Notes: generated by a model from the sequence alone, not told the origin. 64,000 bases of DNA from Lachnospiraceae bacterium (GCA_963643215.1 CAVIJY010000002.1:1073-65072); one strand, 5' to 3'. Counted from the first letter of the stretch, positions 14,772-50,044 are shown. Numbers and translations are program-made.

Positions 14772-14841
14772 TGGTTCGGGTGCACCCGAACCTCCGATTA
14801 CTCGGATTGTTTCGTGCTTCGCACTCCCACAATCCGGTCTC
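14772..14841 (-). repeat. Structured intergenic repeat, family 1, copy A
   Basis: Near-identical to 23634-23702 and 47244-47313. Contains the perfect 20-bp palindrome GGTTCGGGTGCACCCGAACC plus a nested hairpin GGATTGT..GTGC-GAA-GCAC..ACAATCC. Confidence 0.85.
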
Positions 14842-14985
14842 CATTCGGATTCTCGTGGGGCTTTTGCCCCACTTCATCCTCATTGAGAGGCGTGTCATAA
14901 ACTCTATCTCCCACCGACATGTCCCTAAAGGGACTAGCTGCGCGTCGCAGCATGTCGTGGGAGATGAGTTTTGACACTGTAATCA

Positions 14986-15562: not shown

Positions 15563-15638
15563 AAAAAAACCTCCTTCTGATATAGGAGGGGGATACAGGC
15601 GCAGAAAGCACGCCTTTCGCGCGCTCTGCAGTATCAAT

Positions 15639-15747
15639 GCTTCCTTCCGCCGGCATTATCCGGTTCAAGTTATAAGGGTCAGCCGCGACACGCACCCGGT
15701 ATCAAACCTCCGTGCATACGCCGGCCTTCTCAGCATCTGCTCCCCCA
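15639..15747 (-). promoter_or_regulatory. TPP (THI-box) riboswitch
   Basis: Minus strand reads GGGGGAGC..GCTGAGA..ACCCTTATAACTTGAACCGGATAATGCCGGCGGAAGGAAGC, which matches the THI-box core. Downstream, CCCTCCT could sequester the AGGAGG Shine-Dalgarno. Confidence 0.88.
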
Positions 15748-15825
15748 GCAATTTGGACACTTACAGTATATACAAAAAGCCTGTTAAAGCAACAGTGATT
15801 TCTTTCTTCTGCATCAACAGGTCTT

Positions 15826-24689: not shown

Positions 24690-25286
24690 CTACTTCCGTT
24701 CATCCTTTTCTTTTTCGATCGACTTCATCTCTTCCTGCTCTATCTGCTTTGCCAGCCGCAGCGTCTGAATGATGTTCGAGGCCAGCACTGCCAGCAGCGG
24801 CAGCAATATGATCGGGAAAAATATCAGAGGATTGGAAGCCAGCCTCACAAGCTTTCCCAGCAGCAGAGACGACCATACCACCTTTCCGATGATTTCACTC
24901 TCGAATACCGGCTCATCGTCGATGCTGTGATTTGCATCACCCTTTGTCCGGAATATAAGTTCTTCGCCTGACTGCTCGATACCCACTATCCTGTGAGTAT
25001 TGACCATGCCCATGATCTGCTCATCCTTGGAATAAAAGGATATCACATCGCCCGTCCTCAGCGCACCCGGATCCTCCTCCCTGACAACTATAAACGAGTC
25101 AACCGGAAGCTCCGGCTCCATGCTGCCCGACATGACACGAAATGCCGAATATCCGAATACCTTCGGTGTATCGCCGCTCTTTGTGTTGATGGCTACAAAC
25201 AGAACATATATCGCCGCAAGAATAATTGCAATTGATATGAAATTGATGATTCCTGTTATCACTTTCCTTATCATGCTGCTTCCCAT
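24690..25286 (-). CDS. sipW: Signal peptidase I, SipW/archaeal type (copy 2)
   Basis: N-terminal TM, catalytic box VMSGSMEP, a second conserved box HRIVG, and a C-terminal TM. It is the last gene of the riboswitch R1 unit. Confidence 0.85.
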   Translation of the reverse strand: MGSSMIRKVITGIINFISIAIILAAIYVLFVAINTKSGDTPKVFGYSAFRVMSGSMEPELPVDSFIVVREEDPGALRTGDVISFYSKDEQIMGMVNTHRIVGIEQSGEELIFRTKGDANHSIDDEPVFESEIIGKVVWSSLLLGKLVRLASNPLIFFPIILLPLLAVLASNIIQTLRLAKQIEQEEMKSIEKEKDERK

Positions 25287-25352
25287 ATCACGCTCGAAGA
25301 GCTCTCCGGGGGTTCAGATCTTTGCCGCTTATACCGCGGCATACGATTCTTG

Positions 25353-27713
25353 TCATTTTCTTCGTCCGAGCACACGGCCTATGTATCCGGACAGACTTGT
25401 ATCGTTCATCTCCCTGCTCAGCTCTCTGCCAAGCTCCCGGCGATTCTCCTCTGATTCGTCAAGCTCTCTTGTCTTTTTCTCAAGCTTTGAAGTAAGCTCC
25501 TCTATGCTCGCCTCCAGCTGTGACAGTTTCAGATCATTGCATGCCCTATCCTCCGCCCGAGCCGCATTTGCTTCGTCAAGCTCTCTTTGGAGCTCTCTTA
25601 AAGGCCTTTGAGCATCGATAGTCTCCTTCAGGCTTGCATTCTCCTGTTCCTGAGCCGATATCCTCTCAAGCAGCTCCTGCTGCGCCGCCTTGAGTCCGTC
25701 AGCCGTATCTCTGAGCTTCTGAAGATTCTCCAGAGCTTTTGAAAGCTCCTCCTGCACGCTGTCGCGAGCCTTCGTCATACGATCAAGCTCTTTTGATGTA
25801 GCTATGCGAAGCTTGTCCGCCACCTTCGCTTTTTCGCTCTCGGAGGCCGCCAGATCCTTATATCTTGCTATGTCCGCGTCGCTCGCCTGTCTGATGCCTG
25901 TAATCTTTGCATTGAACTCGGATACACTCGCCGCATACTTCTCGTTGAGCTTCGCTACACTGTCCTCATGCTCCTCTTTGAGCTTCGCTACACCGGACGC
26001 ATGCTCCGCATTGAGCTTCGCTAAACTTGCCTCATGCTCCGCATTCAGCCTTGCCGTGCCGGCTGTATGCTCCTTCTCGAGCCTTGTAATGTCGGCATCC
26101 TTTTCTTCTCTCAGCTGAGTCATGCTCTCTTCATGCTCCGCGTTGAGCACAGCTATGCTCTCGTCCCGCTCCTTGACAAGTCTGGCCATATCAGCCTCAT
26201 GCTTCGCATTCTGCCTTGCTATCTTTTCATTCTTTTCCTTCACGGCAGCGGCCACCTCAGCCTGTGAAGCTGCGGTTATATCGGCCACGGTTCTGTCCCG
26301 CTCTTCCTCGGCCTTCCTTATACCCTCTGTCTTCTCGGCTTCGGCCTTCTCGATGGCTGCCTGCTTCTCCTCCTCGGCCTTCTTTATACCCTCGGTCTTC
26401 TCAGCCTCGGCCTTCTCGATAGCCGCCTGCTTCTCCTCCTCAGCCTTCCTTATGCCCTCAGTTTTCTCAGCCTCAGCCTTCTCGATAGCCGCCTGCTTCT
26501 CCAGCTGAGCGCTTACGGCAGCGGCCTCCGCGTCAAGTGCCCGATTCTCCGCCTGTGCAGCACGCGCGTCCGCATCAGCTTTTGCATTCTCAGCCTCGAT
26601 GCGAGCCTGCTTTTCCTCCTCGTACTTGGCCTCGGCCTCCAGCTGAGCCTGAGTCACCTCCTCGATGAATACCCGGCGGATCTCCACATCCGGCAGATCC
26701 GGATCATCCACCTTCATCTCCTCTATCTTCTTGATGAACTTCGGGATTCTCTGACGGTGATGCTTCCAAAGCTCCTTCGTCAGCTCTCGATGATCAGGCT
26801 CGAGTATCGACTTGAACACCGCATAGTTCATGATAAAGTTCGAATACAGCTGGAACAGATACTCCTCATCGAACTGCAGCGTCGACTCCTCCACATTTAT
26901 GGAATAGCCGACCTCCTCATATGTCTCCAGAAACTGCCACAGCTTATAGCATATCCTGTAGTCGCGATCCTTCATCAGAAGGTTCGTCCTCTGTATAGGA
27001 CTGCGCACCTGCTGACATCCGTGCATCAGCTCGCAGAATGCGCTGTTTTTCAGAGCCATGGTCATACGCCTCACGCGATCGATACGCATGAAGACATTCA
27101 TATTGTCGCTGTCATTTTCGGCGAAGCTCTGCAGATTTTTTATAGTCATCTCGATCTTATAATCTATCTGCTCGTATGCATCGTCCACATGACTTGAAAA
27201 TGTCAGCTTGTTCCTTTTTTCATCTCCCGTAGACCAGAATATAACATCCGTTCTCTTATCGATGAATCTTACAAGGCGCTGGATGAGGTGGTATATGAAT
27301 CGGTTCTCATAAAGATCATATGTCTCCTCCACAGTTACATTCAGTATCTTTATGGGATTGACCTCACCGTCTTCCGCGCTTGCTATCAGCTGCGTGTTCT
27401 GACTCAGATGACGCACGCTCTCCGAGGAAATTCGCTTGGCAAGGGATACCGGCACGACCTCCTCGTTGGTTTTCAGCATACGGCGCGGATTCTCTATGAT
27501 CTTGTTTATGGAATCCAGCGCCTCCTCGATAGTGGACAGCCACCTCTCGTCCACCACCTTGCGCAGGATCTGATTCGTTTGATTGATCTCATTCTCACCT
27601 GCGCGGATCATGGTGAAAAGATATCTGAAGTACTTGTCGCCCTCCAGCGCTCCGCCTATGTTCTCAGCGTATTTCAGATACAGATCATTAAGTGTTGCGT
27701 TGTTTTCTTCCAT
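25353..27713 (-). CDS. McrC-N-terminal/DUF2357-like protein fused to a ~440-aa coiled coil; no nuclease motif recognised
   Basis: YDLYENRFIYHLIQRL is the McrC/DUF2357 hallmark (my recollection of the family). The C-terminal half is E/K/A-rich heptad sequence with internal repeats. The start was set at MEENNATL, 8 nt after GGGAG. Confidence 0.6.
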   Translation of the reverse strand: MEENNATLNDLYLKYAENIGGALEGDKYFRYLFTMIRAGENEINQTNQILRKVVDERWLSTIEEALDSINKIIENPRRMLKTNEEVVPVSLAKRISSESVRHLSQNTQLIASAEDGEVNPIKILNVTVEETYDLYENRFIYHLIQRLVRFIDKRTDVIFWSTGDEKRNKLTFSSHVDDAYEQIDYKIEMTIKNLQSFAENDSDNMNVFMRIDRVRRMTMALKNSAFCELMHGCQQVRSPIQRTNLLMKDRDYRICYKLWQFLETYEEVGYSINVEESTLQFDEEYLFQLYSNFIMNYAVFKSILEPDHRELTKELWKHHRQRIPKFIKKIEEMKVDDPDLPDVEIRRVFIEEVTQAQLEAEAKYEEEKQARIEAENAKADADARAAQAENRALDAEAAAVSAQLEKQAAIEKAEAEKTEGIRKAEEEKQAAIEKAEAEKTEGIKKAEEEKQAAIEKAEAEKTEGIRKAEEERDRTVADITAASQAEVAAAVKEKNEKIARQNAKHEADMARLVKERDESIAVLNAEHEESMTQLREEKDADITRLEKEHTAGTARLNAEHEASLAKLNAEHASGVAKLKEEHEDSVAKLNEKYAASVSEFNAKITGIRQASDADIARYKDLAASESEKAKVADKLRIATSKELDRMTKARDSVQEELSKALENLQKLRDTADGLKAAQQELLERISAQEQENASLKETIDAQRPLRELQRELDEANAARAEDRACNDLKLSQLEASIEELTSKLEKKTRELDESEENRRELGRELSREMNDTSLSGYIGRVLGRRK
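26306..26503 (-). repeat. In-frame tandem repeat, 3 x 66 nt (22 aa: QAAIEKAEAEKTEGI[RK]KAEEEK)
   Basis: Units start at 26306, 26372 and 26438 and are nearly identical at the DNA level. Confidence 0.9.
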
Positions 27714-27793
27714 CAGATATCTCCCGGCTGCAGACAATCAATCTCCCGCGGGCTCTTCAAAAGCCGGCGGGAGGCATATCCGATCCGCAGCAG

Positions 27794-27856
27794 CGCCTCA
27801 CGCGATCTCTGCGCATGAAGGCATTCATATTGTCATTGTCGGCGAAGCTTTGCATC
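27794..27856 (-). repeat. Intergenic relic copy of an internal segment (27067-27134) of the downstream gene
   Basis: CGCCTCACGCGATC..GCATGAAG.CATTCATATTGTC...GGCGAAGCT.TGCA is shared by both sites, at roughly 85% identity by eye. Confidence 0.7.
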
Positions 27857-27866
27857 ACGCTGTATT

Positions 27867-29600
27867 TCAATACAGATTCTGGATTCTTGTCAGATAATCC
27901 TGACTGTCCCTCATCTCGTTCTTGCCGAACACCTTCTCCATGTATACCATCAGATTCTTGATCTCATCACGGATGAACATCACATTCTGACTCTCGAACT
28001 TCTTGAGAATCTTTCTTGCAAATATGTAATCAAGACCGCCCAGCTCTGTTCCGCCGCATGCTACATACACGGGGATAAAATCATACATCTGCTTTGTGAT
28101 ACGGTTTCCGAATGCAAGCCTGAAGCGGCTCTGCAGATAGTTGTCAAGCTTTACCATCTTGGCAAGTGTGGCATCGCTTATCGGATGCTCATCCTTGGCC
28201 TTCGCGAAAAGCTCACGAAGATGCGCCGATGTCATCAGAAGCCTCGGCTCCATAGGACATTCAAACGGAGCAGCCTTTTCATTCAGCTCTATGGGCATCG
28301 CACGGTCATAAACCTTGTCGGTGATGGTAAATGTGGAATCGTCGTTGTTCGCCGTTCCGATATACCATGTGTTGTCGCTAACCTTAATCTTGCCGTTCTG
28401 AAGAAGCTCCGGATCCCCCGGCCACGGAGTGGGAACCAGCTCCACGAGCCATTCCTTCTTGTCAGGCATCTCCAGTACAGAAAGCATATCCGCAAAATAG
28501 TACTCTATACGCGCGAGGTTCATCTCATCCAGCACTATCATGGTGACATCCTCTCTGAAGCCCGCCTCATATACGGCCCTCAGAAATTCTGTCTCGTTGA
28601 AGCGCTTTGAGAATTCATTGAAATATCCCAGCAGATCCGTTCTCTCCCTGAATGACGGCTGCACAGATATCATCGTGGCCGGATTGTCAAGATACCGGCT
28701 GAATGAATACGGCAGTGATGTCTTACCTGTACCGGAGATACCCTCCAGAATCAGTATCTGACTCGAGGCCATACCCGCTACAAATCTTCGGACTATCTCA
28801 GGCGTATAGTACAGATGAAGCTGACTTGCGGCAAACCTTCTGTATCCCTCGACGATCTCCTCAAGCGTGACATTCTCATTGTATGCCGGCCACTCGTAGT
28901 CCCTGTACTTCTGATCCACCGCCTCCAGCTTCGGAAAGCGTGATGTGTTCGCACGTTCCTGCTCCTCTGCCGAGCTTTTGGCCTGAGCCACTGCCGTAGC
29001 AGCGGCGGCAGCAGCATTTGCTATGGTATCCGAGCTTATCTCTGCTCCCTCGATATTGCCGCCTATTCCCATGACAGTCCCGGCTGCAGCTCCGCCCTCG
29101 CCGGATACGGCTGTATCCGAGAGAGGATCCACAAGCCCGCCGACCAGTGCGCCTGCAGAACCGGCCGCACCGGGTACGCCGTCCCCATTCAGTCCGGCAG
29201 CTCCGTATCTGGCAAGCTCCTGTGTGGGAACCTTCATGGCGAGTATCTGCTCCTTCTCATCCATCAGCTCGAGCACCTGACGGTTGAGCCTTCCTATCTC
29301 CTTGTACAGCACCATGCTGTCCTGCCCGTCCATCCTCAGAGACGCCACCAGATAGATATGCCGTATGATAAGAATGATGATCAGGATCGGTATGGCTATC
29401 AATATGATCGCAAGGATGATAGACAGAAATCTTGCAACTATATTCATTGATACAAAATACGATCTGAATATGAGAGCGTATTCTCCCCAGCCCGTGATAA
29501 ATACCTTCACAAAGCCATTGATAAAATTCACAACCCATGAAGCTATGTTGTAGATGATTCTTGCTATCAGCTCATATGCGAGCTTGAGAAATTCACTCAT
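27867..29600 (-). CDS. Membrane-anchored McrB-like AAA+ (AAA_5) NTPase
   Basis: N-terminal TM helices (ILAIILIAIPILIIILII), a coiled coil and a G/A-rich linker. Then Walker A GISGTGKTS, Walker B MIVLDEMNLARIEYYF and GTANNDDS (compare McrB GTMNTADRS). The ATG overlaps the sipW stop. Confidence 0.7.
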   Translation of the reverse strand: MSEFLKLAYELIARIIYNIASWVVNFINGFVKVFITGWGEYALIFRSYFVSMNIVARFLSIILAIILIAIPILIIILIIRHIYLVASLRMDGQDSMVLYKEIGRLNRQVLELMDEKEQILAMKVPTQELARYGAAGLNGDGVPGAAGSAGALVGGLVDPLSDTAVSGEGGAAAGTVMGIGGNIEGAEISSDTIANAAAAAATAVAQAKSSAEEQERANTSRFPKLEAVDQKYRDYEWPAYNENVTLEEIVEGYRRFAASQLHLYYTPEIVRRFVAGMASSQILILEGISGTGKTSLPYSFSRYLDNPATMISVQPSFRERTDLLGYFNEFSKRFNETEFLRAVYEAGFREDVTMIVLDEMNLARIEYYFADMLSVLEMPDKKEWLVELVPTPWPGDPELLQNGKIKVSDNTWYIGTANNDDSTFTITDKVYDRAMPIELNEKAAPFECPMEPRLLMTSAHLRELFAKAKDEHPISDATLAKMVKLDNYLQSRFRLAFGNRITKQMYDFIPVYVACGGTELGGLDYIFARKILKKFESQNVMFIRDEIKNLMVYMEKVFGKNEMRDSQDYLTRIQNLY

Positions 29601-30400
29601 ATCCTGTCATCCTTGGATTCAGTCTGTTTTTTTGCGGACTCGTCCGCCTCAAGAGCCGCCAGCCGGGCCTGAGCCTGGGCAAGCTGTCTCTTCAGCCTCT
29701 CGGCCTCTGCCGCAGCATCCTCGCGGTTCTGCGCTCCTTCAGCAGACGCTCCCGCGTTAATCTGCGCCGCTGTACCTTTATCACTGTCCGGCTGCTCTGT
29801 TCGTACATTCTGTGCCGCCTGCGCCGCGGCCTGCGCTGTTTCTATGGCCACAGCCTTCTTCAGCTGGATGCTGACCATGATCAGGTGATATACCTGATAT
29901 ATGAAGAAGATCAGCATCGGCAGAACTATCACCACCAGAAATCCCGTCGAGCTTGACAGAAAGTCGAGCACCTTGCCGAGTCCCTTGACTCTTCCCGTGT
30001 ATTTTCCGACGATATCTCCGTCCGAGATGATATGAGTATCGCTTATCTGGTTGTTATCACCCTTTGTCACATAGGATCTGTATCCGCCGCTCTCGCTTAT
30101 CTCTACGATACGGTGAGTGTTCAGCGCGTACTGATTCAGAATGATGGTATGGAAGGTTATGATATCGCCCTCCTTCAATGTCGCGGGATCAACCTTTTTT
30201 ATGATGATCAGATCTCCCGCATCAAAGGTCGGGGACATTGATTCAGTCTGAACGGACAGCGGAGTATATCCGAACAGGTTGCTTACATTGTTCACGTCTC
30301 TGGTTGCAAGTGTGGTGAAGGTAAAAAGTGCCGCGAGCAGGATGACAGCCCATAACACAACGCTTGCAAGCACCGTCGCAACCTTCTTCAAGACTTCCAT
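29597..30400 (-). CDS. sipW: Signal peptidase I, SipW/archaeal type (copy 1) with C-terminal TM and ~90-aa charged tail
   Basis: Catalytic box VQTESMSP and second box HRIVE. A C-terminal TM is followed by the coiled tail AERLKRQLAQAQARLAALE. Confidence 0.85.
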   Translation of the reverse strand: MEVLKKVATVLASVVLWAVILLAALFTFTTLATRDVNNVSNLFGYTPLSVQTESMSPTFDAGDLIIIKKVDPATLKEGDIITFHTIILNQYALNTHRIVEISESGGYRSYVTKGDNNQISDTHIISDGDIVGKYTGRVKGLGKVLDFLSSSTGFLVVIVLPMLIFFIYQVYHLIMVSIQLKKAVAIETAQAAAQAAQNVRTEQPDSDKGTAAQINAGASAEGAQNREDAAAEAERLKRQLAQAQARLAALEADESAKKQTESKDDRI

Positions 30401-30425: not shown

Positions 30426-31226
30426 TTATTCAAAGGGGATGTTGTTCTCATCAGTGCCTGTGAACTTCATGCGGATCGAAAACTGCTCCGTTTTAAGCTC
30501 ATTTGTGCATTCCTCGTCGCTTCCCTCAAGCCATATGCAGACATCTACGGGTTTGTCCTCCCCGGCGACGGCGGAAAACAAGGCATTTCTGTCATTATAA
30601 ACCATTTCGGTATCATTTGAAATGCCGAAAAATCGCACATTATCAAGGTTTTTGCTTTCATCCCCCATATCCGGATCATATACAAGGAATTTATCATCCA
30701 CTAAAAAGCCTATCCGCATGGCTTTGACCAGCGGCGCGCTGTCCGAGACTATAAGCGTAGCCTCCTCATCCCCGTCCTGCGCCGTAAGATGGACTATCAT
30801 ATCCCTGGATGCCATAAAATGAAGTCTGTATCGGATAAAGTCTCCGCTTTCCTCAGATGCGCTCTGTCCGAACTGATATGTGAATGTGATTCCGTCGTCC
30901 GTTGTGACGGGCTCAAGAGTCTTTGTCGTGATATCAACGCCTGTGTCCTGCAGTATCCTCTCGGCTATCTGATTGAAGCTCAGCGTCTGCACATATTCGT
31001 CGATCGTCTCGTGCGCATCAAGATCAAAACGCAGCGACTGCCCTGTCGTGATGTCAAGCCCTATGCCTCGCAGGCGCGTATTGTCGGCTATCGTAAACCA
31101 CGCCGCCGTGGCTGCCGTGATACTGACAAGAGCAATCAGGGCGATCAGAATCGTAGTTCTGACCGTCGATCTTCTGCTCATATTCAGTCTGTCAGTTCCC
31201 CGCTGCATATTCCTCGTCCCCTGCAT
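30426..31226 (-). CDS. TasA/camelysin-like secreted protein with SipW-type signal (putative fibre subunit)
   Basis: Signal ...ITAATAAWFTIAD. The C-terminus is IWLEGSDEECTNE...FSIRMKFTG. Confidence 0.65.
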   Translation of the reverse strand: MQGTRNMQRGTDRLNMSRRSTVRTTILIALIALVSITAATAAWFTIADNTRLRGIGLDITTGQSLRFDLDAHETIDEYVQTLSFNQIAERILQDTGVDITTKTLEPVTTDDGITFTYQFGQSASEESGDFIRYRLHFMASRDMIVHLTAQDGDEEATLIVSDSAPLVKAMRIGFLVDDKFLVYDPDMGDESKNLDNVRFFGISNDTEMVYNDRNALFSAVAGEDKPVDVCIWLEGSDEECTNELKTEQFSIRMKFTGTDENNIPFE

Positions 31227-31262
31227 CGCCCTTCTGTATCAAAAGCTCACATCCATGCGCTG

Positions 31263-31366
31263 TGTCGGCGGCTCTCGCGCTTGCGCTATGTCGTCGGCTC
31301 TCACCCTTGCTCCATGTCGTCGGCTCTCACCCTTGCGCTGTGTCGTCGGCTCTCGCCCGACTCCCG
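31263..31366 (-). repeat. Intergenic tandem repeat, 4 x 26 nt
   Basis: Units start at 31263, 31289, 31315 and 31341 (TGTCGTCGGCTCTCACCCTTGCGCTG on the plus strand). They lie between two TasA-like genes. Confidence 0.9.
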
Positions 31367-31382
31367 CATCAGCCGCTCCGCC

Positions 31383-32273
31383 TCATTCCTGTGTCAGCGC
31401 CGCATAGAATCCGAGCTTCATGGTGACCTCACTTGCTATGATTGATTCTACACAGTCCGGATCACAGCCCTCCAGATAAAAATATATATCCACAAGAACC
31501 GGCGTATTCAGCTCGATGACAGCCAGTGAGCTTTCGGGATATTCAGTCGAATCCGCCGTCATGGTCACTGTGGATATCGCAACAGCCGGATCGTCTACAG
31601 CATTTACGCTGCTTCCGTTCACCTCCAGAACCTGTCCCTCGCTCGCCAGTGTGCTCCCTATGTATGTATTGCTGCGTCTGTCCGAGGTCTCCTGCGCATC
31701 ATCAAAATATAGAATCACCGCGCTTGAGGAATCCTCCGAGAAGACAAATCCCAGCCTTGACGCCGCCAGTATGCCGCTTGAGTTTTCGTCTGTTCCTATG
31801 CTGTCCGTACCTGAGCCCTCATCAAGATATATGGCTGCTTTCATTCCCTCAAACCGATCAGTTCTGTCTGTGCGCACCTCCATATATATCTGGCCGTGAT
31901 AGCAATATGTGCCGTTCTCGTCGATATCTACCTCTTCGTATACGCCGTATCCGTCATTACTGTCCTCGGATATGGATACCGCGTGAGCCCAGCTTTGCAG
32001 ATCGGAGGTGGATACCGGAAGCAGCATATCATCCTCAGAGGAATTGACCCGGCTTATCTCCGCTTCGTCATTCCGGCTCAGATCACCTTCACTTGTTCCG
32101 AGAAGCAGCTCCAGACCGTCCTCCCCGGTGCGACCCGAGGCGTAGCTCGTATAGACCCTCTGGTTTCCCGTAAACCACGCATATGTGGCGCTTCCCAGAG
32201 AAAAGGCAAGGATCATGATCCACGCAAACGATATAAGCAGCGTCTTCTGCATAGAGCCCATATCCATCCTCAT
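31383..32273 (-). CDS. TasA/camelysin-like secreted protein with SipW-type signal
   Basis: Signal ...LGSATYAWFTGN. The C-terminus is YFYLEGCDPDCVES...VTMKLGFYA. Confidence 0.65.
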   Translation of the reverse strand: MRMDMGSMQKTLLISFAWIMILAFSLGSATYAWFTGNQRVYTSYASGRTGEDGLELLLGTSEGDLSRNDEAEISRVNSSEDDMLLPVSTSDLQSWAHAVSISEDSNDGYGVYEEVDIDENGTYCYHGQIYMEVRTDRTDRFEGMKAAIYLDEGSGTDSIGTDENSSGILAASRLGFVFSEDSSSAVILYFDDAQETSDRRSNTYIGSTLASEGQVLEVNGSSVNAVDDPAVAISTVTMTADSTEYPESSLAVIELNTPVLVDIYFYLEGCDPDCVESIIASEVTMKLGFYAALTQE

Positions 32274-32286
32274 GCCTCATCCTCCG

Positions 32287-33153
32287 TCAATCCGAATCAA
32301 CGCCTATACCGGCAAATCCCATATTGAATCTCACATCCCCGCCCTGAACATCATTGACACAGCCGTCATCGCAGCCCTCAAGATAAAGATAATATTCCAC
32401 GGTTATGACCGTATTGGCCGGAATCAGTGCCAGCGCGCGGCTTCCCGCGGTAAAGTCGTTCTGGCCTGCCGAATATGCCATATATCCGGCGATATCCTCT
32501 GCGGGATCGGCGACAAATGCAGGATATCCGCCCGCATCGACTCCGTCAATAACGACATTTTCCTTTTCTACGGTGAGTGATGCCTCCGGAGTGGAGCCTG
32601 TCCTGTCCATGTCCAGCTGATCGAGCGCGAGTATCACACGTGCCAGCTCGTCTCCTGTGGACTCATTGCGCAATACCAGTCCGAGACGCGCCGCCTGCTC
32701 GGCGCCGTTGCCCATGGTAAAGAGCATGTCGGCTCTGTTCAGATATACATTGCAATCCTGATTTTCCGCCAGCAGATAGACATTTCCGTGAAATATCATG
32801 GCATCAAGCGTCGACTGAACGGTGATCTCCCGAAATCCGGTGGATATGCCGTTCCTGTCCTGAGCGATTGACTCATACCAGCGCTCGAGTGTGGATGTCG
32901 ATACCGGGTACAGGCTCTCGGACTCATTGTTCTGATATGAGAGCGCACACTCTGTGCCGAAGGAGCCGCTGTAGGAATCCGAAATCTTCAGATCCACGCC
33001 GCCCCGCCCTACGGAGCCCGCCATAGGCGTGATATTGGTATCAACGCCGAATGTAAACCACGCAAAAGCAGCTCCTCCCAGCGCCAGAAGCGCCAAAAGA
33101 AGCCATACCAGAGATGCAAGCAGTGTGGTTTTCCTCAGCGAATTTTTATCCAT
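32287..33153 (-). CDS. TasA/camelysin-like secreted protein with SipW-type signal
   Basis: Signal ...LGGAAFAWFTFG. The C-terminus YLYLEGCDDGCVNDVQGGDVRFNMGFAG resembles camelysin FLDNGKDQNKFQGDSIKLDFTFDAT. Confidence 0.7.
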   Translation of the reverse strand: MDKNSLRKTTLLASLVWLLLALLALGGAAFAWFTFGVDTNITPMAGSVGRGGVDLKISDSYSGSFGTECALSYQNNESESLYPVSTSTLERWYESIAQDRNGISTGFREITVQSTLDAMIFHGNVYLLAENQDCNVYLNRADMLFTMGNGAEQAARLGLVLRNESTGDELARVILALDQLDMDRTGSTPEASLTVEKENVVIDGVDAGGYPAFVADPAEDIAGYMAYSAGQNDFTAGSRALALIPANTVITVEYYLYLEGCDDGCVNDVQGGDVRFNMGFAGIGVDSD

Positions 33154-33159
33154 TTACTG

Positions 33160-34074
33160 TCACGAGCCCTGATATCCCGCAAATGATATCGAAAGATTAT
33201 CAAAGATCTCGCCCTCTATATCCGAATAGCAGTCAGGATCGCATCCCTCCAGCCATACATAGACATCTATCTTCACCGGATCTCCGTATGATGCACCGGT
33301 GTCGCCTGATGCTCCTTTGCCGCTTACAGTACAGATCTGAACGGAATCGCTCTTCAGCGTCACCTTACCGGTTTCTGTGTCATAGCTGCACATGTTGTCG
33401 CTGTCATAGGTCTCTACAGGAACCACTGACCCGTCTGTCTTTTCATGATCCAGCACCAGATTCAGGTACGAGCCGTCTGCACTGTATCCTTCTTTTGTAT
33501 TGTATTGTCCGGACGCTCCCGGCGTCGAATCAAGTTCAAAGAAGAACTGCTTTCCGTTCTCGACAACCAGCCCGATGCGAAGAGCCTTGGCCAGCTTCTC
33601 TCCGGTGCCTGACTCGCCTATCTGAGATACATATATCGGCAGATCTCCGTCGTATGATGTACGAAGGAAAAGCTGCGTATGATAGAAATCAGCGGTATCA
33701 GCGCGTCCGAATACCGATGCCAGCATGTAGTTTCTTTCTGCATCTCCTGCCGTAAATTTCTGAGCTGACTGGAATCCTCCGTCCTGCGCCGATGTGTCGA
33801 TATAGTCGGTCGACACAGGCGTCAGTATCACCGTTTTATCATCATTGCCGACCTTCAGACTTGTCGATGTGCCGTAATCACCGTCCTTCGCATTGGAGAT
33901 CTGCAGCGAGACCGAGGATCCGGCCGTCATCTTCACATCTATAGTATTGCCGCTTGTATGATATATATACCAGGCAAATGTAGTCACGGTAGCGGTCATC
34001 AGCGCAAGAAGCATGAATACGGCGGCCCCCAGCAGCTGCCTTCTCAGCACTGTGCTGTGTTCATTTCGTTCCAT
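33160..34074 (-). CDS. TasA/camelysin-like secreted protein with SipW-type signal
   Basis: The start was trimmed to MERNEHS at 34074. Signal ...ATVTTFAWYIYH. The C-terminus is YVWLEGCDPDCYSDIEGEIFDNLSISFAG. Confidence 0.65.
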   Translation of the reverse strand: MERNEHSTVLRRQLLGAAVFMLLALMTATVTTFAWYIYHTSGNTIDVKMTAGSSVSLQISNAKDGDYGTSTSLKVGNDDKTVILTPVSTDYIDTSAQDGGFQSAQKFTAGDAERNYMLASVFGRADTADFYHTQLFLRTSYDGDLPIYVSQIGESGTGEKLAKALRIGLVVENGKQFFFELDSTPGASGQYNTKEGYSADGSYLNLVLDHEKTDGSVVPVETYDSDNMCSYDTETGKVTLKSDSVQICTVSGKGASGDTGASYGDPVKIDVYVWLEGCDPDCYSDIEGEIFDNLSISFAGYQGS

Positions 34075-34078
34075 GATA

Positions 34079-36118
34079 TCATTCCTCTGATTTACGGTTT
34101 GACGGACTGGCAAGCTGAGGCCTTGAATCCGTCTCTGACGATGTATCCGAGTTCTTATCACTGTCTTTTTTATCTGTTCCGTCCGTGGTTTTATCCGCGG
34201 GCTTAGTGCTGACATCGGCCTTCGGATCCGTGATTCCGTCTATCGTGAGATCGTTTATAAAATCCGTCTCGACATCTATGATACGGTTTACAATCATATC
34301 AGCCTGTGCATCATCGGCGAGTATCAGCGATGCATACTCCTGCCCCTCCTCGCCTGCGACTATATCGCTGTATATGATGTCTATTCTTTCTATCCTCGTA
34401 TCCTCATCAGCAGACATAAGCAGGATATAAGCGGCTATATCATCCTCTGTATATCCGTCTGCCAGCTTGCTGAGTCTGCCTCTCTCATCATATACCGCGC
34501 ATACCGTCATATCCTCGGCAACTGCGCAATACGAGGCCTTCCTCAGGAATCTCTGCGACAGCACTATGCCGACGGACACCGGTTCGTCAGAGGCTGCCGT
34601 CTCAGCCGCTGTTGTTTTCTCAGCTGCGGTTGTCTCCTCAGCTGCACTTGTCTCCGCAGACGCGGTTGTCTCTGCAGCTGCGGTTGTCTCTTCGGCTGCG
34701 GATGTTTCCTCAGCTACGGTTGTTTCCGCAGATACAGTTGTTTCTGCAGCTGTGGTTGTCTTCTCGGCTGCGCTTGTCTCCGCAGGCTTTGTCTCGGGTG
34801 TCTTTGTTATGATTCCGTCTGCGACATCATCGGCCTCAAACTCAAGACCGCTGCCGTCGCCCTTTGCAAATCTTATTCCGGCATCCTCCGGCAGCTCAAG
34901 CACCAGCTCTCCGGCTATCATATCGTCATCAAGCTTTGCCACCTTGAGACCCACAGTACCGTCCGCCATGGCACTCTCGAACACATTTCCGAGATACTCC
35001 TCCGCTGCTCCGAGCGTATCAGGCATGCCGGATATATATTTTGCCGATCCGTATATGTTTATCTGTGCATCATAGTATACGGGAGCGGCGCTCTGTCTGT
35101 ATTCCCTGATCTCCTCCGGGTCTATAAAAAGATAGCTGTCAAGATAGAGCATGGAGGCTCCTTCTGTGATATCTATGGCAGCATCCTCTCCGTCTGCACC
35201 ATCCTCGGCCATCTCGCAGGCTCTCTTAAAATCGGCCGTCCACACCGCCGCTGTCTCTGCATCTATTCCGTCTGTAATCTCGAGATCATAGCCGTCATTA
35301 CAGTATATAATCTCAGTATCGGAGGCTCCGGCCAGCTTCACCACCGCCGCGCCGTCATCGCATTCGTATTCTGCCAGCCATACATCATCTTCCGGCTCAT
35401 CATAAAAAGCAGCAGCAGGCTCCGTATATTCCAGCTCTGTCTCCATGCCGCGAACCGCAGCATAGCAGCCGTCATTGACGCTTACCATCACACTGTTTAT
35501 GCTCATATCTGTCTGGTCAAACCTGAGTATATAGTTTCTGCCGACCTCATCGATATAATAGCTGCAGGCCTCCAGTTTCTCTTCATCCAGATCTATGATA
35601 TATATGAGTTCTCCGTCATTTGCCACGACGGCTCTTTTCAGCTGATCAAGGCTTATCTCCCCGTCAGCTGCCGTCAGTGCAAGCGTATGCCCCTGCTCCT
35701 CGTATTCAGAGTCAAACGATATCCTGAGCTCTATATCCGGCTCTGACTTGCAGAAATATGTATTGATCGCTATGATCGTCTCCCGCTGCGCAGGGTTGAG
35801 CGTAAAGTCATGAAGATAGCTTTCTGTCCTGATTTTCTCGTCTTGAGCCTCGTATATCAGTCTGGCCGCATTCGACTTAAAGACATAGTTAAGAAGCAGC
35901 CTGTCGGCATCACCGTATTCTTCCTCTATCTGCCGTCCGAAGGCATCGAGAATCTCCTCGTTTACCGAGAAAAATGCCTTTCTCTCATCGCTTTCCTCTG
36001 ATGCCCATGTTCCCGGCGCAGCAGCACATATCATAAAAGCAGCAGCAAGAAGCATCGCAAGGCATCTCCTTGCGATGCGTCCGCATCTTATATATCTGTC
36101 TATGACAGATCGAAGCAT
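34079..36118 (-). CDS. Secreted acidic protein of unknown function with a conventional Sec signal; first gene of the R1 unit
   Basis: Signal ...AAAPGTWA/SEES. It is very D/E-rich, has an ETTAAE low-complexity segment and a K/D/S-rich tail. I recognise no family. Confidence 0.5.
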   Translation of the reverse strand: MLRSVIDRYIRCGRIARRCLAMLLAAAFMICAAAPGTWASEESDERKAFFSVNEEILDAFGRQIEEEYGDADRLLLNYVFKSNAARLIYEAQDEKIRTESYLHDFTLNPAQRETIIAINTYFCKSEPDIELRISFDSEYEEQGHTLALTAADGEISLDQLKRAVVANDGELIYIIDLDEEKLEACSYYIDEVGRNYILRFDQTDMSINSVMVSVNDGCYAAVRGMETELEYTEPAAAFYDEPEDDVWLAEYECDDGAAVVKLAGASDTEIIYCNDGYDLEITDGIDAETAAVWTADFKRACEMAEDGADGEDAAIDITEGASMLYLDSYLFIDPEEIREYRQSAAPVYYDAQINIYGSAKYISGMPDTLGAAEEYLGNVFESAMADGTVGLKVAKLDDDMIAGELVLELPEDAGIRFAKGDGSGLEFEADDVADGIITKTPETKPAETSAAEKTTTAAETTVSAETTVAEETSAAEETTAAAETTASAETSAAEETTAAEKTTAAETAASDEPVSVGIVLSQRFLRKASYCAVAEDMTVCAVYDERGRLSKLADGYTEDDIAAYILLMSADEDTRIERIDIIYSDIVAGEEGQEYASLILADDAQADMIVNRIIDVETDFINDLTIDGITDPKADVSTKPADKTTDGTDKKDSDKNSDTSSETDSRPQLASPSNRKSEE

Positions 36119-36364: not shown

Positions 36365-36475
36365 AAAAACCAGCTCACATGTAAATCTCTGTGACCTGGC
36401 AACTGGCTGGCTGCAATGCCGCAGCCCCTATAGCTTTGCGTCATCGGATCGCTCCGATTTTGCCTTCTTTTCAAT
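36363..36475 (-). promoter_or_regulatory. c-di-GMP-I (GEMM-I) riboswitch R1 with terminator
   Basis: Minus strand reads AGAAGGCAAAATCGGA-GCGA-TCCGATGACGCAAAGCTATAGGGGCTGC..GCAGCCAGCCAGTTGCC. A CCAGGTCACA..TGTGAGCTGG hairpin and T7 follow. Confidence 0.85.
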
Positions 36476-36521: not shown

Positions 36522-38828
36522 TCATCTCTCGCATACTCTGGCAAAGAGATATCCCAGGCTTCCCATCTCTTCCTTTGTGAGTATCCGATGATTTTTCTCC
36601 ATCTCCCGCCTGATGGCTACCATGATCTCCAAGAGTCCGATGGGCACACCCTGAGCAGCTGCCAGATAAGCAGCCGTGAGCGCCACATTTTTGATGATGG
36701 CTCCGGTGAATTTAAATATCCTTGCCAGCTCACGATAGTCAACCTCCGAGGCAACCGGCGCCTGCTTCGGGAACACACTGCTCCATATCTCATAGCGGAT
36801 CTGCTCATCAGGCTCCTTGAACAGGAGATAATATCTGAATCTTCTCAGGAACGCATTATCTATGGATGTCATGTTGTTTGTCGCAAGTATCGATATCCCG
36901 TCGAATTCCTCTATGCATTGCAGCAGCAAAGAGGACTCTATATTGGCAAAACGCTCATTGGCATCCTTTGCATCCATACGCTTGTTGAATATGGAATCGG
37001 CCTCGTCAAAGAAAAGCACGCTGTTGCTCTTTTTTGCCTGATCAAATATCCTTCTGATATTCTTCTCCGTCTCTCCGACATATTTGTCTATAAGCTGAGA
37101 AAGATCTATCTTGTAAAGCTCCATCCCGAGCTCATTGGCCACGACCTGCGCAGCCATGGTCTTTCCGGTTCCGGGAGGACCTGCAAAAAGCACGGTTACC
37201 CCTGAGCCGTACGGAACCTTGCTCTCGAAATTCCACTCCTGCATGACGATATGACGGTTTCTTACAGTATCGCACACATCCCTCAGCAGCGTCTTATCTC
37301 TGGGATCCATCTTGATATCATCCCATTTAAACGGCGACTCAACCTTCTGTGTATGATCCTTGAGCGGATGCCCCATGACCGCATAGCAGCTTTTATAAAG
37401 CATCCCTCGTGATACATCCTCATGCAGAAATGCCTGTCTTGCCGCCCGGTTTATCTGTCCCGGCGTCAGTGTGAAGCTGTTGGCCAGCTGCTGTATCTCT
37501 CCCTCGGAAAGAGCAAGGCTCCTGTCGCCGCTATAGCCTCGAAGATAGTATGTCCATATCCTCGCTCTTGTGACGGCATCCGGCATCTTCACTGCAAAAA
37601 GATATACACCCTCGATGTAGTCCGGCACTGTCTCCGCCTCAATCAGCATACATACCGGAACATTCACAGATCCGGCTTTTCCTGTCAGCCAGCTTATATA
37701 CAGCTTCTGCCGATCCGCAGAGTAGCCTCCCAGCCCGGATATGACCAGCATCCTGTCTGTCACTATACACTCGCGCACCGCATACAGTGTATGATCCATC
37801 AGCACAGAGATGTCTCCGGCTGCATTTGCCTCATTCAGACACTCTCCCGCATCGTACTCTATCGCACGCATACCGGTGTCTGCCAATGCTCCTGCCGCTA
37901 TAGTGTGCTTTCCCGCTCCGCGCGCTCCCCAGAGGACAATCGGAGCTGAGTATGACCTGAGACGGCGGGCGAGACTCTCCCTGTCATCCCTCATATAAGC
38001 ATACGGAGAATCCTGCGCGGAATCGTCCTCGGACGCCGCGCCGCTCAACATATGCATACCGTACAGCAGATTCAGAGAAGCCTGAGCCGCATCCGGTATA
38101 CGTCCATATGTAAGTCCTGTCGGAAATCCTGCCGCAGAAGCACTTGCCGCAAAGCCGTTGGCCTCATCCGTCATCAGCTCGTACAGCCGCATGTCAAGCT
38201 GCGGTGTCAAGTGGAATATATCCTCTGCTCCGTCGCACTCCGGGAAGAGATATCCGAGAGAATCAGCGACCTCACTCAGCATTCTGCTCACGCGGGCTCC
38301 GCCGTAAAGCCCGTCTCCGAACAGGAGATTTACCACATCATACAGACTTTTCGCCCCCACCATCGATGCATAGTCTCTGTCCAGATATACATGATAGTAG
38401 TAAATCAATGTCTCCGTCATCCAGTCCGGAAGCAACAGCCTTTCAAGCAGTATATTCAGCGCCGGGATCTTTCCTGCCGTCACGCTGACATCCCGGCGCG
38501 CGATGATCTGGTCGGCCCACAGCTGCGCGGTCTGACCCTCTGACAGCCCCCGCATGATCAGTCTTGTGCGCAGGTATTCAATTGCTCTCACACATCGTGA
38601 CAGCTCTGTTGATTCCGGTCCCGACAGCACAGTCTCTCCCACTGCAGCATCACTCGCTGTAGCATCGCGCGGCTCAAGCATCTGCAAACCACTCTTTTCC
38701 AGAAGGCTCTGCCGCTCCTGCATGATTTCAAGTATTCTCAGGTCAACGAAAACAGACAGCTCCTCGACATATTCAAAGCTGTCTGTATATGGTCTGTCTC
38801 CTGCAAATCGTACCAACGGATCATTCAT
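36522..38828 (-). CDS. Two-domain AAA+ ATPase (degenerate D1, canonical classic-clade D2)
   Basis: D1 is LWGARGAGKHT. D2 has GPPGTGKTMAAQVVANELG, Walker B VLFFDEADSIF and ILATNN..DNAFLRRF. Confidence 0.8.
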   Translation of the reverse strand: MNDPLVRFAGDRPYTDSFEYVEELSVFVDLRILEIMQERQSLLEKSGLQMLEPRDATASDAAVGETVLSGPESTELSRCVRAIEYLRTRLIMRGLSEGQTAQLWADQIIARRDVSVTAGKIPALNILLERLLLPDWMTETLIYYYHVYLDRDYASMVGAKSLYDVVNLLFGDGLYGGARVSRMLSEVADSLGYLFPECDGAEDIFHLTPQLDMRLYELMTDEANGFAASASAAGFPTGLTYGRIPDAAQASLNLLYGMHMLSGAASEDDSAQDSPYAYMRDDRESLARRLRSYSAPIVLWGARGAGKHTIAAGALADTGMRAIEYDAGECLNEANAAGDISVLMDHTLYAVRECIVTDRMLVISGLGGYSADRQKLYISWLTGKAGSVNVPVCMLIEAETVPDYIEGVYLFAVKMPDAVTRARIWTYYLRGYSGDRSLALSEGEIQQLANSFTLTPGQINRAARQAFLHEDVSRGMLYKSCYAVMGHPLKDHTQKVESPFKWDDIKMDPRDKTLLRDVCDTVRNRHIVMQEWNFESKVPYGSGVTVLFAGPPGTGKTMAAQVVANELGMELYKIDLSQLIDKYVGETEKNIRRIFDQAKKSNSVLFFDEADSIFNKRMDAKDANERFANIESSLLLQCIEEFDGISILATNNMTSIDNAFLRRFRYYLLFKEPDEQIRYEIWSSVFPKQAPVASEVDYRELARIFKFTGAIIKNVALTAAYLAAAQGVPIGLLEIMVAIRREMEKNHRILTKEEMGSLGYLFARVCER

Positions 38829-48299: not shown

Positions 48300-49406
48300 T
48301 CAATCACCGCCGGTTGTCGTCGGAACCACTCCAACATAGCTGACCTTCACGCTCAAGCCGATGTCATCACTGTCAGACATGCCGACCATAGCCGCGCTGT
48401 CGGTACCCTCCAGCCATACATACACCTCGACATCCACTCCTGCTGTAGTCGCGGTGCAGAGCTTTGTGGTGCCTGCCTCATATATATGCTCTGATCCCGA
48501 TGACTTTTTCCCCTCATAGTCGGCCAATCCCGCGTCTCCGACTGTTATCGCAGGACTCTCAAGCTTCCATGTCGCCGAAGAGCCTGCTGTGGTTTCCTCT
48601 ACTATCGCCTTGTAGTTTGTATCTGCATCTCCGTCCGTATTACCGCTTTCGGTCTCCGCTACCGGAGCATATATGAGAAGCACATCCCCGCTTTTAATTC
48701 CTACACGAACCGCCTTTTTAAAGCTGTCCTTGCCGCTTGAGGTGCCGCTGGTATTTAAGGTTACCGTGATCGGAGCGTCCGGATTCAGATATATATCAAG
48801 ATCGCCGCTTTCGGTATACAGATTGTCGCATGTATAGTAGTACGCGGTTCTTTGCTGATTCTCAAAGGCATTCGTATAAACGCCTGATACCCCGGTTGAA
48901 TCAAGCTCGATCCCGCCGCCTGTAGTTATCTTCGTGAAGTCATCCGCCAGCGGCGCGGATATGTCCACCGTGGTGGTTGTGGTTGATCCCGAAGCGTCAA
49001 TAGTATACCCGCCCAGTCTGAAGCTGCTCGCATAGAACCAGTTCGTAAGATCATTGGTCGATATGGGATACAAGGCCGCTTCGATATTTCGTGTCACGCT
49101 TTCTGCATACTTCTTATCCTCATCCGCCTGAGCCTTCTCGCTTGACGGTCTGATATACAGGGACGGCGACGGAGTATCCGAGGTGATAGAGGAGTTGGCG
49201 CTTTCCACCTTTTTGTTGCTGGCAAACCACGCACGCGAAAGAAACGCACCCGTGGACATCCCTGCCACAAGCACGCTCACCATGATGAGCATTATCTGCT
49301 GGTGCATGCGTCTGCGCAACTGCGCGACAGACGGCACGGACTGCCCGTCCCGGACTGCCTCCTGTTCATTATCATATATGCGGTTTTTATCCCTGTTAAA
49401 CAGCAT
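48300..49406 (-). CDS. TasA/camelysin-like secreted protein with SipW-type signal; first gene of the R2 unit
   Basis: Start MLFNRDKN at 49406, after GAGGAA. Signal ...GAFLSRAWFASN. The C-terminus is VYVWLEGTDSAAMVG...LSVKVSYVG. In-frame upstream ATGs inside repeat family 2 cannot be excluded. Confidence 0.6.
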   Translation of the reverse strand: MLFNRDKNRIYDNEQEAVRDGQSVPSVAQLRRRMHQQIMLIMVSVLVAGMSTGAFLSRAWFASNKKVESANSSITSDTPSPSLYIRPSSEKAQADEDKKYAESVTRNIEAALYPISTNDLTNWFYASSFRLGGYTIDASGSTTTTTVDISAPLADDFTKITTGGGIELDSTGVSGVYTNAFENQQRTAYYYTCDNLYTESGDLDIYLNPDAPITVTLNTSGTSSGKDSFKKAVRVGIKSGDVLLIYAPVAETESGNTDGDADTNYKAIVEETTAGSSATWKLESPAITVGDAGLADYEGKKSSGSEHIYEAGTTKLCTATTAGVDVEVYVWLEGTDSAAMVGMSDSDDIGLSVKVSYVGVVPTTTGGD

Positions 49407-49426
49407 AAAATGATTCCTCAAGCTCT

Positions 49427-49544
49427 GACCTTGGCTCATTGCTTCGCGTAACTGCGGAAAACACGCTTTGCGAGTTTTCCTCGTTATCGCGGCGTTCATC
49501 AATGTCCTGAGCAAGCTCGGACCTTGATTCATTGCTTCGCGTAA
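49427..49544 (-). repeat. Intergenic repeat, family 2, copy c (two 25-nt direct repeats flanking a 68-nt core)
   Basis: GACCTTGGCTCATTGCTTCGCGTAA at 49427-49451 and GACCTTGATTCATTGCTTCGCGTAA at 49520-49544. The core contains the hairpin GGAAAACTCGCAAAGCGTGTTTTCC. Confidence 0.8.
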
Positions 49545-49650
49545 AAAAAATCAGCCGCTGCAAATATATATTATCTGCAACTGGCTGACTTATTCAAGTC
49601 CCTTTAGCTTTGCGTCACCGCTTCACAACGGCTTTGCCCCTCTATTTGTG
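49543..49650 (-). promoter_or_regulatory. c-di-GMP-I (GEMM-I) riboswitch R2 with terminator
   Basis: Minus strand reads GAGGGGCAAAGCCGTT-GTGA-AGCGGTGACGCAAAGCTAAAGGGACTT..AAGTCAGCCAGTTGC. The terminator is TCAGCCAGTTGCAGAT..ATTTGCAGCGGCTGA plus T8, and its 5' arm overlaps the aptamer 3' strand. Confidence 0.88.
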
Positions 49651-49657
49651 TATACAC

Positions 49658-49686
49658 AGTTTAACGTCACAACCGACTCTTGTCAA
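49658..49686 (-). promoter_or_regulatory. Sigma-A-type promoter for R2 (TTGACA-17-TAAACT)
   Basis: -35 at 49686-49681 and -10 at 49663-49658. Confidence 0.55.
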
Positions 49687-49699
49687 TTATGTTTTGTTT

Positions 49700-50002
49700 T
49701 TACATCACAGCAGCTCTGTACGGTTCTATTTCCGCAATATCTTTTGCAATACTCGTTTTCAGTGCTCTTATATCAATATCATTTTGCATATCCAGAAAAT
49801 ATCGATCCGATACACCGAAGAATTTAGCCAGTCTCAAGGATGTGTCGGGGGTAATTCTCCTACCGCTGTTCAGGATAGCCTGTATTCTGGATACGGGAAC
49901 ATGAATGCCCTGAGCCAACTTATAGGCCGAAATATTCATCGGCTCCATGAACTCTTCTTTGAGGATTTCACCCATCGCGGGCGCTTTAATATACTCAGTC
50001 AT
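49700..50002 (-). CDS. higA: HigA-family antitoxin (XRE HTH)
   Basis: 100 aa. ISAYKLAQGIHVPVSRIQAILNGRRITPDTSLRLAKFFG is typical of HigA. It lies downstream of higB. Confidence 0.85.
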   Translation of the reverse strand: MTEYIKAPAMGEILKEEFMEPMNISAYKLAQGIHVPVSRIQAILNSGRRITPDTSLRLAKFFGVSDRYFLDMQNDIDIRALKTSIAKDIAEIEPYRAAVM

Positions 50003-50044
50003 GCTTCTCCTCCCCTCCGTTTATCGCAGCATGCCTATGCTCCG

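Follow-up and report, generated by a model that had tools for sequence, protein, structure and literature searches.

Four anciently diverged members of an undescribed protein family, in fixed order within a CoCoPALM locus of a Lachnospiraceae bacterium, as candidate minor subunits of a surface fibre

CoCoPALM is a system named in an eLife paper of 2024 (PMC11090510), where it receives about three sentences and its analysis is deferred. According to that description its McrB-like AAA+ GTPase carries an N-terminal fusion with transmembrane and coiled-coil regions and shows an NxD rather than an NxxD signature; an adjacent McrC-like DUF2357 coiled-coil protein and genes of the signal peptidase family accompany it. 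The paper links the signal peptidases to pilus assembly, and the members of the McrBC radiation that have been characterised serve in defence (PMC11090510). Its main text never uses the word "pilin", and CoCoPALM, signal peptidase, pilus, SipW and TasA are all absent from two of its supplements. No follow-up paper on CoCoPALM was found in the literature. The locus described here lies in a 64,000-nucleotide stretch of a Lachnospiraceae bacterium (GCA_963643215.1 CAVIJY010000002.1:1073-65072), hereafter the window, whose positions are used throughout unless another locus is named. Its system is CoCoPALM, named but uncharacterised, and it includes a run of four paralogous genes, here types A to D.

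The window (at 24690-30400) and every related locus with room share with CoCoPALM the membrane-bound, coiled-coil McrB-like protein, the DUF2357 McrC-like coiled coil and the signal peptidases. Added here are the A-B-C-D quartet and its signature, an anchored relative (type E), a variable relative (type M) and control by cyclic di-GMP (c-di-GMP). With TasA/CalY of Bacillus the locus has in common an operon that encodes its own SipW-type peptidase, a conserved signal whose T-aromatic-A end runs into aromatic residues, a beta-rich secreted subunit, and accessory paralogues (on the Bacillus side, for example, TapA and CalY). In contrast to TasA, however, its mature domain shows neither detectable sequence or profile similarity nor a convincing fold match, TasA lacks both cysteine and the W-L-E-G-x-D-x-x-C block, and TasA operons lack a McrBC-like motor. 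The BsaA/BsaB fibres of Clostridium perfringens (10.1101/2024.11.04.621531; PMC7395162) likewise come from a clostridial operon with sipW, with several distant TasA-like paralogues and a proposed heteropolymer assembly, and several TasA/BsaA paralogues per operon are known (10.1101/2024.11.04.621531). BsaA donor strands are locked by an N-E-K isopeptide triad, and export is tied to type IV pilus genes (10.1101/2024.11.04.621531; PMC7395162). By description, the E-G-x-D-x-x-C signature and the McrBC-like partner set the present locus apart; the only mention of "McrB" in the BsaA paper (10.1101/2024.11.04.621531) is an E. coli genotype.

Our preferred reading, to which we assign a probability of roughly 55%, is that types A to D are fixed minor or structural subunits of a CoCoPALM-linked, c-di-GMP-controlled surface fibre and are not detectably related to TasA. 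The four genes are the following:

33160-34074, minus strand: type A (p4), 304 residues, signal end TFAWY, C-terminal block WLEGCDPDC
32287-33153, minus strand: type B (p3), 288 residues, signal end AFAWF, C-terminal block YLEGCDDGC
31383-32273, minus strand: type C (p2), 296 residues, signal end TYAWF, C-terminal block YLEGCDPDC
30426-31226, minus strand: type D (p1), 266 residues, signal end TAAWF, C-terminal block WLEGSDEEC

An alternative start of type A at 34215 is possible, but would overlap the upstream gene. The gaps between adjacent genes around the quartet measure 4, 6, 13, 156 and 25 nucleotides. All four proteins begin with a basic segment and a hydrophobic helix whose end is A-W-[FY]; they also share the motifs L-x-P-V-[ST]-T and A-x-R-[ILV]-G and a C-terminal [WY]-L-E-G-x-D-x-x-C block. 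Pairwise BLAST matches among them are weak, with the exception of type B against type C (95.5 bits). Profile-profile comparison of the D-type orthologues yields a probability of 96.5% against A-type orthologues (E = 7.8e-10, 223 columns) and of 98.1% against B-type orthologues (E = 1.4e-13, 230 columns); as judged from these profiles, homology between the types is full-length and secure despite the weak pairwise matches. An initial annotation of this DNA had described four neighbouring, strongly diverged genes with gaps of 4-156 nucleotides, all of them keeping the A-W-[FY] signal end and the C-terminal block, as a distinct paralogous family with this signature; the reading frames, motifs, gaps and profile homology agree with it on each of these points, and the family adjoins SipW-type peptidases. 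The 156-nucleotide gap between types C and D is filled by a 26-nucleotide tandem repeat (31245-31358, 4.4 copies, 82% matches). In the close relative L001 this gap measures 148 nucleotides, and in distant relatives types C and D almost touch.

Types A to D belong to one large undescribed family. A word-indexed search with an alignment of the six members in the window retrieved 100 proteins, all unnamed and without Pfam domains, and an exhaustive search with a hidden Markov model (HMM) recovered 9189 clusters of 50% identity with E <= 1e-3, 4303 of them reaching E <= 1e-10. The only name attached to the family in any source is "hypothetical protein [Lachnospiraceae bacterium]". The four proteins and 98 family members do not match any Pfam or NCBIfam model consistently, types A to D match no PADLOC model, and the family profile has no match among PDB sequences at E <= 10. 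In a set of 135 diverse representatives, the consensus of the signal end reads T/S-x-A-W-[FY]. A relative of type D is encoded in at least 303 genomes (scanned with one genome per species), mostly Lachnospiraceae (Agathobacter, Blautia, Coprococcus, Acetatifactor, Dorea, Marvinbryantia), furthermore Oscillospiraceae and a few Coriobacteriia assemblies. So far the literature appears to contain no description of this family of subunits, of its division into four types, of its anchor and major relatives or of its cysteine pattern.

The four types keep their places over long distances. In an all-against-all BLAST that included paralogues from three distant loci, each window protein scored best against the gene at its own position, with 33-58% identity to the positional orthologue and about 20-30% to neighbouring paralogues; type A orthologues in the loci L002, L004 and L005 are 38-39% identical. 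Synteny was followed by phmmer of the window proteins onto 86 loci, mostly of Lachnospiraceae and Oscillospiraceae, 80 of which had been fetched from the type D genomes. The order A-B-C-D-SipW1-McrB-like-McrC-like-SipW2 is near-universal among them: a complete A-B-C set precedes type D in 59 of the 60 loci with room upstream, and a complete set of SipW1, McrB-like, McrC-like and SipW2 genes follows it in all 49 with room downstream. Even members of just 20-25% identity (P0097, P0099) stand beside signal peptidase, McrB-like and McrC-like genes, in varied order. By gene order and identity, types A to D are thus four orthologous groups in fixed order, anciently diverged and non-redundant. Antigenically varied alternatives, as which the quartet had also been proposed, are rejected because of this fixed order and positional orthology. 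Distinct structural roles fit the same pattern, and so does the proposal of minor, tip or initiator subunits, with a far more variable relative as the likely major subunit.

Downstream of the quartet on the same strand, the operon continues with the CoCoPALM genes:

29597-30400, minus strand: SipW1, 267 residues, TIGR02228 5.4e-30 (104 bits), NF046067 1.3e-28
27867-29600, minus strand: McrB-like AAA+ NTPase with an AAA_5 domain, PADLOC PDC-M26A 2.3e-36
25353-27737, minus strand: McrC-like protein, DUF2357 (PF09823, 1.7e-12) at residues 70-195, then a long coiled coil
24690-25286, minus strand: SipW2, 198 residues, last gene of the operon, TIGR02228 1.6e-27 (96 bits), NF046067 2.1e-32

SipW1 and SipW2 are signal peptidases I of the endoplasmic reticulum/archaeal SipW type, above the TIGR02228 cut-off of 51.85 bits and both below the SipW equivalog cut-off of NF046067; the linkage with a SipW-type peptidase holds in 49 of the 49 loci with room. 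SipW1 ends in a transmembrane segment and a charged cytoplasmic coiled-coil tail of about 85 residues, a possible point of contact with the McrB-like and McrC-like coiled coils; in SipW2 the last hydrophobic segment is followed by no more than a short charged stretch. In the McrB-like protein a long hydrophobic segment (residues 47-91) precedes a coiled coil and the AAA_5 domain. Its invariant motifs are GISGTGKTS, IVLDEMNLAR and GTANNDDSTF, the last of which is readable as either an NxD or an NxxD GTPase signature, and its PDB matches are Midasin AAA domains only. The McrC-like reading frame adjoins the McrB-like one in every locus listing that reaches that far. Beyond DUF2357 it consists of Ala/Glu/Lys-rich repeats, including a coding tandem repeat within the coiled coil (26301-26502, 66 nucleotides, 3.1 copies), and neither a nuclease domain nor a transmembrane segment was detected in it.

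Three c-di-GMP-I riboswitches were found by the Rfam scan, scoring 56-62 bits against a gathering score of 35:

36395-36474, minus strand: c-di-GMP-I riboswitch (62.1 bits, E = 9.7e-10), heading P679-A-B-C-D-SipW1-McrB-like-McrC-like-SipW2
49573-49648, minus strand: c-di-GMP-I riboswitch, heading the unit of type X (48300-49532) and the giant proteins
53253-53330, minus strand: c-di-GMP-I riboswitch, heading type M

They head the three units that encode proteins with A-W-[FY] signals. Each aptamer is directly followed by a terminator hairpin and a U-run, the 5' arm of the hairpin overlapping the 3' end of the aptamer. To judge from these RNA elements, the operon is switched by c-di-GMP in this organism, and the riboswitches probably act as ON switches. 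Structured RNAs are recurrent within these operons: in L028 the McrB-like and McrC-like genes are separated by a Clostridiales-1 RNA (13334-13507), and in L021 a GA-cis RNA (10881-10967) stands between type D and SipW1. The window also holds a Clostridiales-1 RNA (14795-14985) and a thiamine pyrophosphate (TPP) riboswitch (15625-15756). A 7-nucleotide tandem repeat, (AATAAGG)n on the coding strand, is located at 53428-53468, directly ahead of the riboswitch and promoter-like site that precede type M.

Further family members and associated genes occupy the region upstream of the quartet:

34079-36118, minus strand: P679, a 679-residue secreted protein, Thr/Ala/Glu-rich, first gene of the operon, lineage-specific, also in L007
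38998-43005 and 43081-47304, minus strand: giant proteins of 1335 and 1407 residues, signal ends ASFAWYGE and ASLAWYGE
48300-49532, minus strand: type X member, signal end SRAWF, C-terminal block WLEGTDSAA, no cysteine
51931-53088, minus strand: type M member, 385 residues, C-terminal block WIEGMDKKC
53481-54752, minus strand: type E member, 423 residues, C-terminal block WMEGDDPEC, no A-W-F
54786-55466, minus strand: PilZ-domain protein, syntenic with types E and M in other genomes
55459-57300, minus strand: HD-domain protein of the HD-GYP type

The signal and N-terminus of type M, including its hydrophobic segment, are more than 80% conserved across genomes, the remainder being hypervariable and rich in Thr, Ser and Ala; the N-terminus weakly matches the Pfam archaeal flagellin (E = 5.2e-4) and the NCBIfam flagellin PRK08541 (E = 0.0071). 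In type E a long, acidic N-terminal region on the cytoplasmic side leads into a single transmembrane segment (residues 156-179), after which a conserved stretch, FMQEKMGNFTINLNRLELYRKG, follows. Type E is the sole type without the A-W-F site, the motif being found in none of 25 proteins, and it always follows the PilZ gene. Mean orthologue identity over 22 genomes amounts to 73% for the McrB-like protein, 67% for type E, 64% for SipW1, 62% for PilZ, 55.5% for type D, 55% for the McrC-like protein, 54.6% for type A, 51% for SipW2, 46% for type B, 45% for type C and 37% (minimum 14%) for type M. Because of these identities type M looks like an exposed major subunit and types A to D like conserved minor ones; on sequence grounds, type M is the likely candidate for the former role and type E a candidate for an uncleaved membrane anchor. 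The giant proteins, candidate adhesin cargo, look closely similar over approximately their first 200 residues and have no Pfam match. A 3600-residue protein is located at the equivalent place in L004. The Thr/Ala/Glu-rich linker of P679 contains coding tandem repeats of 18 to 72 nucleotides (34600-34785).

The cysteines of the C-terminal block differ between types. Among the 135 representatives, a cysteine is found at D+3 of the block in 129, the residue after E-G is cysteine in only 51, and in 22, as well as in most type D proteins, there is a single cysteine in the whole protein. The C-x-x-x-C pair is kept at 95-100% in types A, B and C (99% in type A). In type C it comprises the only conserved cysteines, and the four type C orthologues without the first cysteine (Thr instead) also lack the second (Ser). 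Type D has Thr followed by a single Cys (83 of 84) and, furthermore, a type-specific invariant His, Asp and Glu; type E has Asp or Glu, then Cys (21 of 21); in type M the block is mostly absent (20 of 24). As far as conservation can tell, the pair acts as a unit in types A to C and the second cysteine has a separate role elsewhere. An intramolecular disulfide cannot be the general role, and is rejected for the family as a whole, because the second cysteine is often the only one of the protein. Of the initial suggestion that the pair could form a disulfide or a metal site, the conservation of the pair in types A to C thus stands, and the intramolecular disulfide does not hold as a general explanation; a metal site, an intermolecular link and a buried structural cysteine are candidate roles. 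The pair had furthermore been said to be lacking in TasA and camelysin, and in agreement with this none of 62 TasA/CalY homologues has it; 57 of the 62 lack cysteine altogether, and none possesses a [WYF][LIM]EGxD block.

For comparison with TasA, the reference was checked against PDB 8AUR and 5OF1, and 33 of the 62 collected homologues were aligned. All 62 match PF12389 (Peptidase_M73), and neither the four proteins nor 98 family members do so at E <= 10. The profile comparison (hhalign) of the family with the 33-sequence TasA/CalY profile gives a probability of 4.5%, the aligned part being the signal and first strand only, and with TasA alone 1.3%. By eye the T-x-A-W-F end resembles the TasA signal end G-T-W-A-A-F (T-W-A-A-F), and hhalign aligns both in register; TIGR04088, the SipW-cognate signal model, is weakly matched by only four of the 98 family members (best E = 0.0053) and the TapA signal model by two.

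AlphaFold2 models were obtained for the full-length type D protein (mean predicted local distance difference test score, pLDDT, 88.9) and the mature type B protein (pLDDT 86.5, predicted template modelling score 0.87). Both consist of an N-terminal helix and an all-beta sandwich, and in the type D model the helix is unbroken over residues 13-45, passing through A-W-F. The part of lowest confidence is the invariant mature N-terminus (pLDDT 57 in the first model, 44 in the second). A segment so invariant and yet modelled with such low confidence suggests use between molecules, as a swapped strand or an inter-subunit plug. About ten residues after W-[FY] are conserved within each type and different between types; chaperone-usher pili, by analogy only, fix subunit order by such a type-specific N-terminal pattern. 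The highest-probability Foldseek matches in the PDB are weak (probability 0.23-0.47, TM-score <= 0.35, E >= 0.03), comprising AbpA (7UEG, 0.47 and 0.28, with both models), the Sulfolobus acidocaldarius thread (7PNB, 0.41) and CanA (9DLO/9HDI), all of them beta-sandwich subunits of donor-strand filaments processed by signal peptidase I. The likeness to these archaeal filaments lies in the beta-sandwich and in processing by signal peptidase I, which is probable for the present family, the matches themselves not being significant. The TasA structures 5of1 and 8aur are not within the top 50 matches of either model.

In the proposed mechanism the precursors would insert into the membrane via the N-terminal helix, and the SipW-type peptidases of the same operon would most likely cut at T/S-x-A|W-[FY], leaving the invariant Trp as new residue 1. 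Types A to D would be made in roughly equal amounts, because they belong to one transcription unit with near-touching genes, and may form an ordered heteromeric set of minor subunits, i.e. a tip, initiator or base complex, that serves as start, cap or base for a polymer with type M as bulk subunit. Uncleaved type E may hold the fibre on the membrane, and the giant proteins with the same signal may be cargo or adhesins. A cytoplasmic McrB-like ring with the McrC-like coiled coil would gate or power assembly or release across the membrane, with the coiled-coil tail of SipW1 as a possible coupling route to this motor. General knowledge offers an analogy in the minor (pseudo)pilins GspH-I-J-K and FimU-PilV-W-X, which share four divergent paralogues, a fixed order and a separate variable major subunit; the present locus differs from the type IV minor pilins in lacking a class III signal, a prepilin peptidase and a PilB-type ATPase.

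Several observations weigh against the fibre reading. A filament has been neither seen nor predicted here, where the system is known from genes and monomer models. Nor does the fibre reading account for the function of the conserved cysteine. Foldseek searches of both models against the PDB returned nothing below E = 1e-3, with no significant match to any known pilin, and the N-terminal fragments of the window proteins do not match TIGR04088 at E <= 10. Defence is the function of the motor's McrBC relatives, and the McrB-like protein matches a candidate defence model of PADLOC. Finally, no c-di-GMP riboswitch was found in seven other loci; the riboswitch layer is therefore lineage-specific, PilZ being widely syntenic.

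The likeliest alternative, although we hold it to be unlikely, is that types A to D are not fibre subunits at all but serve a conflict or envelope system of McrBC descent as its exported parts or cargo, for instance as a wall-spanning heteromer, a sensor or SipW-released effectors. The origin of the motor in the McrBC radiation, whose characterised members are defensive (PMC11090510), and the PDC-M26A match agree with it, as does the lack of a significant structural match to any pilin; the conserved His, Asp, Glu and Cys of type D could form a metal or catalytic site, and the similar amounts of protein to be expected from the operon layout would suit a defined complex. However, no nuclease domain was detected in the McrC-like protein and no PADLOC model matches types A to D, PilZ and the c-di-GMP riboswitches point to adhesion or surface structures, the hypervariable type M with its highly conserved signal looks like a major surface subunit, and giant adhesin-like proteins carry the same signal.

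That the quartet consists of true TasA/camelysin paralogues polymerising by donor-strand exchange, in four interchangeable or antigenically varied copies, is improbable to a higher degree. It would account for the adjacent SipW-type peptidases, the signal end that aligns in register with that of TasA, the few weak matches to TIGR04088 and the TapA signal model and the weak Foldseek matches to the TasA-like filament subunits AbpA and CanA, and multiple TasA/BsaA paralogues per operon have a precedent (10.1101/2024.11.04.621531). Against it stand the lack of any PF12389 match, the hhalign probability of 4.5% over signal and first strand only, the lack of a match among PDB sequences, the position of 5of1 and 8aur outside the top 50, and the fixed A-B-C-D order with positional orthology, which opposes interchangeable or variable copies. 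The term "TasA-like", which the initial annotation had used, fails in the sense of homology on the PF12389, hhalign and Foldseek results; it holds only by analogy, for the SipW-type peptidase, the T-aromatic-A/aromatic signal end and the beta-rich exported subunit.

A type IV pilin- or archaellin-like assembly, with the N-terminal helix retained as filament core and the NTPase extracting subunits from the membrane, is very improbable: the continuous helix through A-W-F, the weak archaellin matches of type M, its conserved hydrophobic segment beside a variable remainder and the membrane-anchored NTPase of the operon would suit it, but the class III signal G|F/M-x-x-x-E is absent from every family member, scans of genes of the locus with Pfam or NCBIfam turned up no prepilin peptidase, two S26/SipW peptidases cutting after the hydrophobic segment are invariably linked, the A-W-F site is missing only from type E, and the signal peptides of the TasA family are strongly conserved too, so that conservation alone is no proof of retention. 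Type IV pilins are rejected on these absent motifs, and sortase-type pilins likewise, an LPXTG-like sorting motif being absent from all proteins of the locus.

The fibre reading can be extended, tentatively, to a new class of Gram-positive fibre made of types A to D, E and M. Its assembly would be powered or gated by a ring of the McrB-like GTPase anchored in the membrane, together with the McrC-like coiled-coil partner, both recruited from a restriction system and acting via SipW peptidases with coiled-coil tails. In such a fibre the invariant N-terminal Trp and the E-G-x-D-x-x-C motif would be the inter-subunit joint, and the types with one cysteine (D, E) could be chain ends and those with two (A to C) internal links. 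This wider proposal is possible rather than probable.

Two further features of the window are located outside the conserved core or between its units. The interval 36522-38828 encodes a 768-residue AAA+ ATPase with a large N-terminal region and a match to PADLOC IetA (2.4e-39), beside which no IetS-like protease partner was seen; it has no phmmer match in the 86 loci and therefore stands outside the core. Two genes on the plus strand (49610-51810), one of them a DUF4143/AAA_14 ATPase, interrupt the minus-strand locus between type M and the next unit and are possibly an insertion.

The family is very large (9189 clusters) and has neither a Pfam or NCBIfam model nor an informative name, and its carriers are mainly Lachnospiraceae and Oscillospiraceae, dominant bacteria of the human gut and rumen. 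Cultivable carriers comprise Blautia sp. MSJ-19, Blautia intestinihominis CLA-AA-H95 and Blautia sp. OF03-15BH. The label CoCoPALM can now be filled with parts, namely two peptidases, four fixed subunits, a membrane anchor and a variable major subunit, together with control by c-di-GMP; the subunit, anchor and major roles are candidate assignments. If these proteins do build a surface fibre, the gut microbiota would possess a major organelle for adhesion or aggregation that has gone unrecognised, and its motor would be the first of McrBC type to serve anything beyond nucleic-acid restriction.

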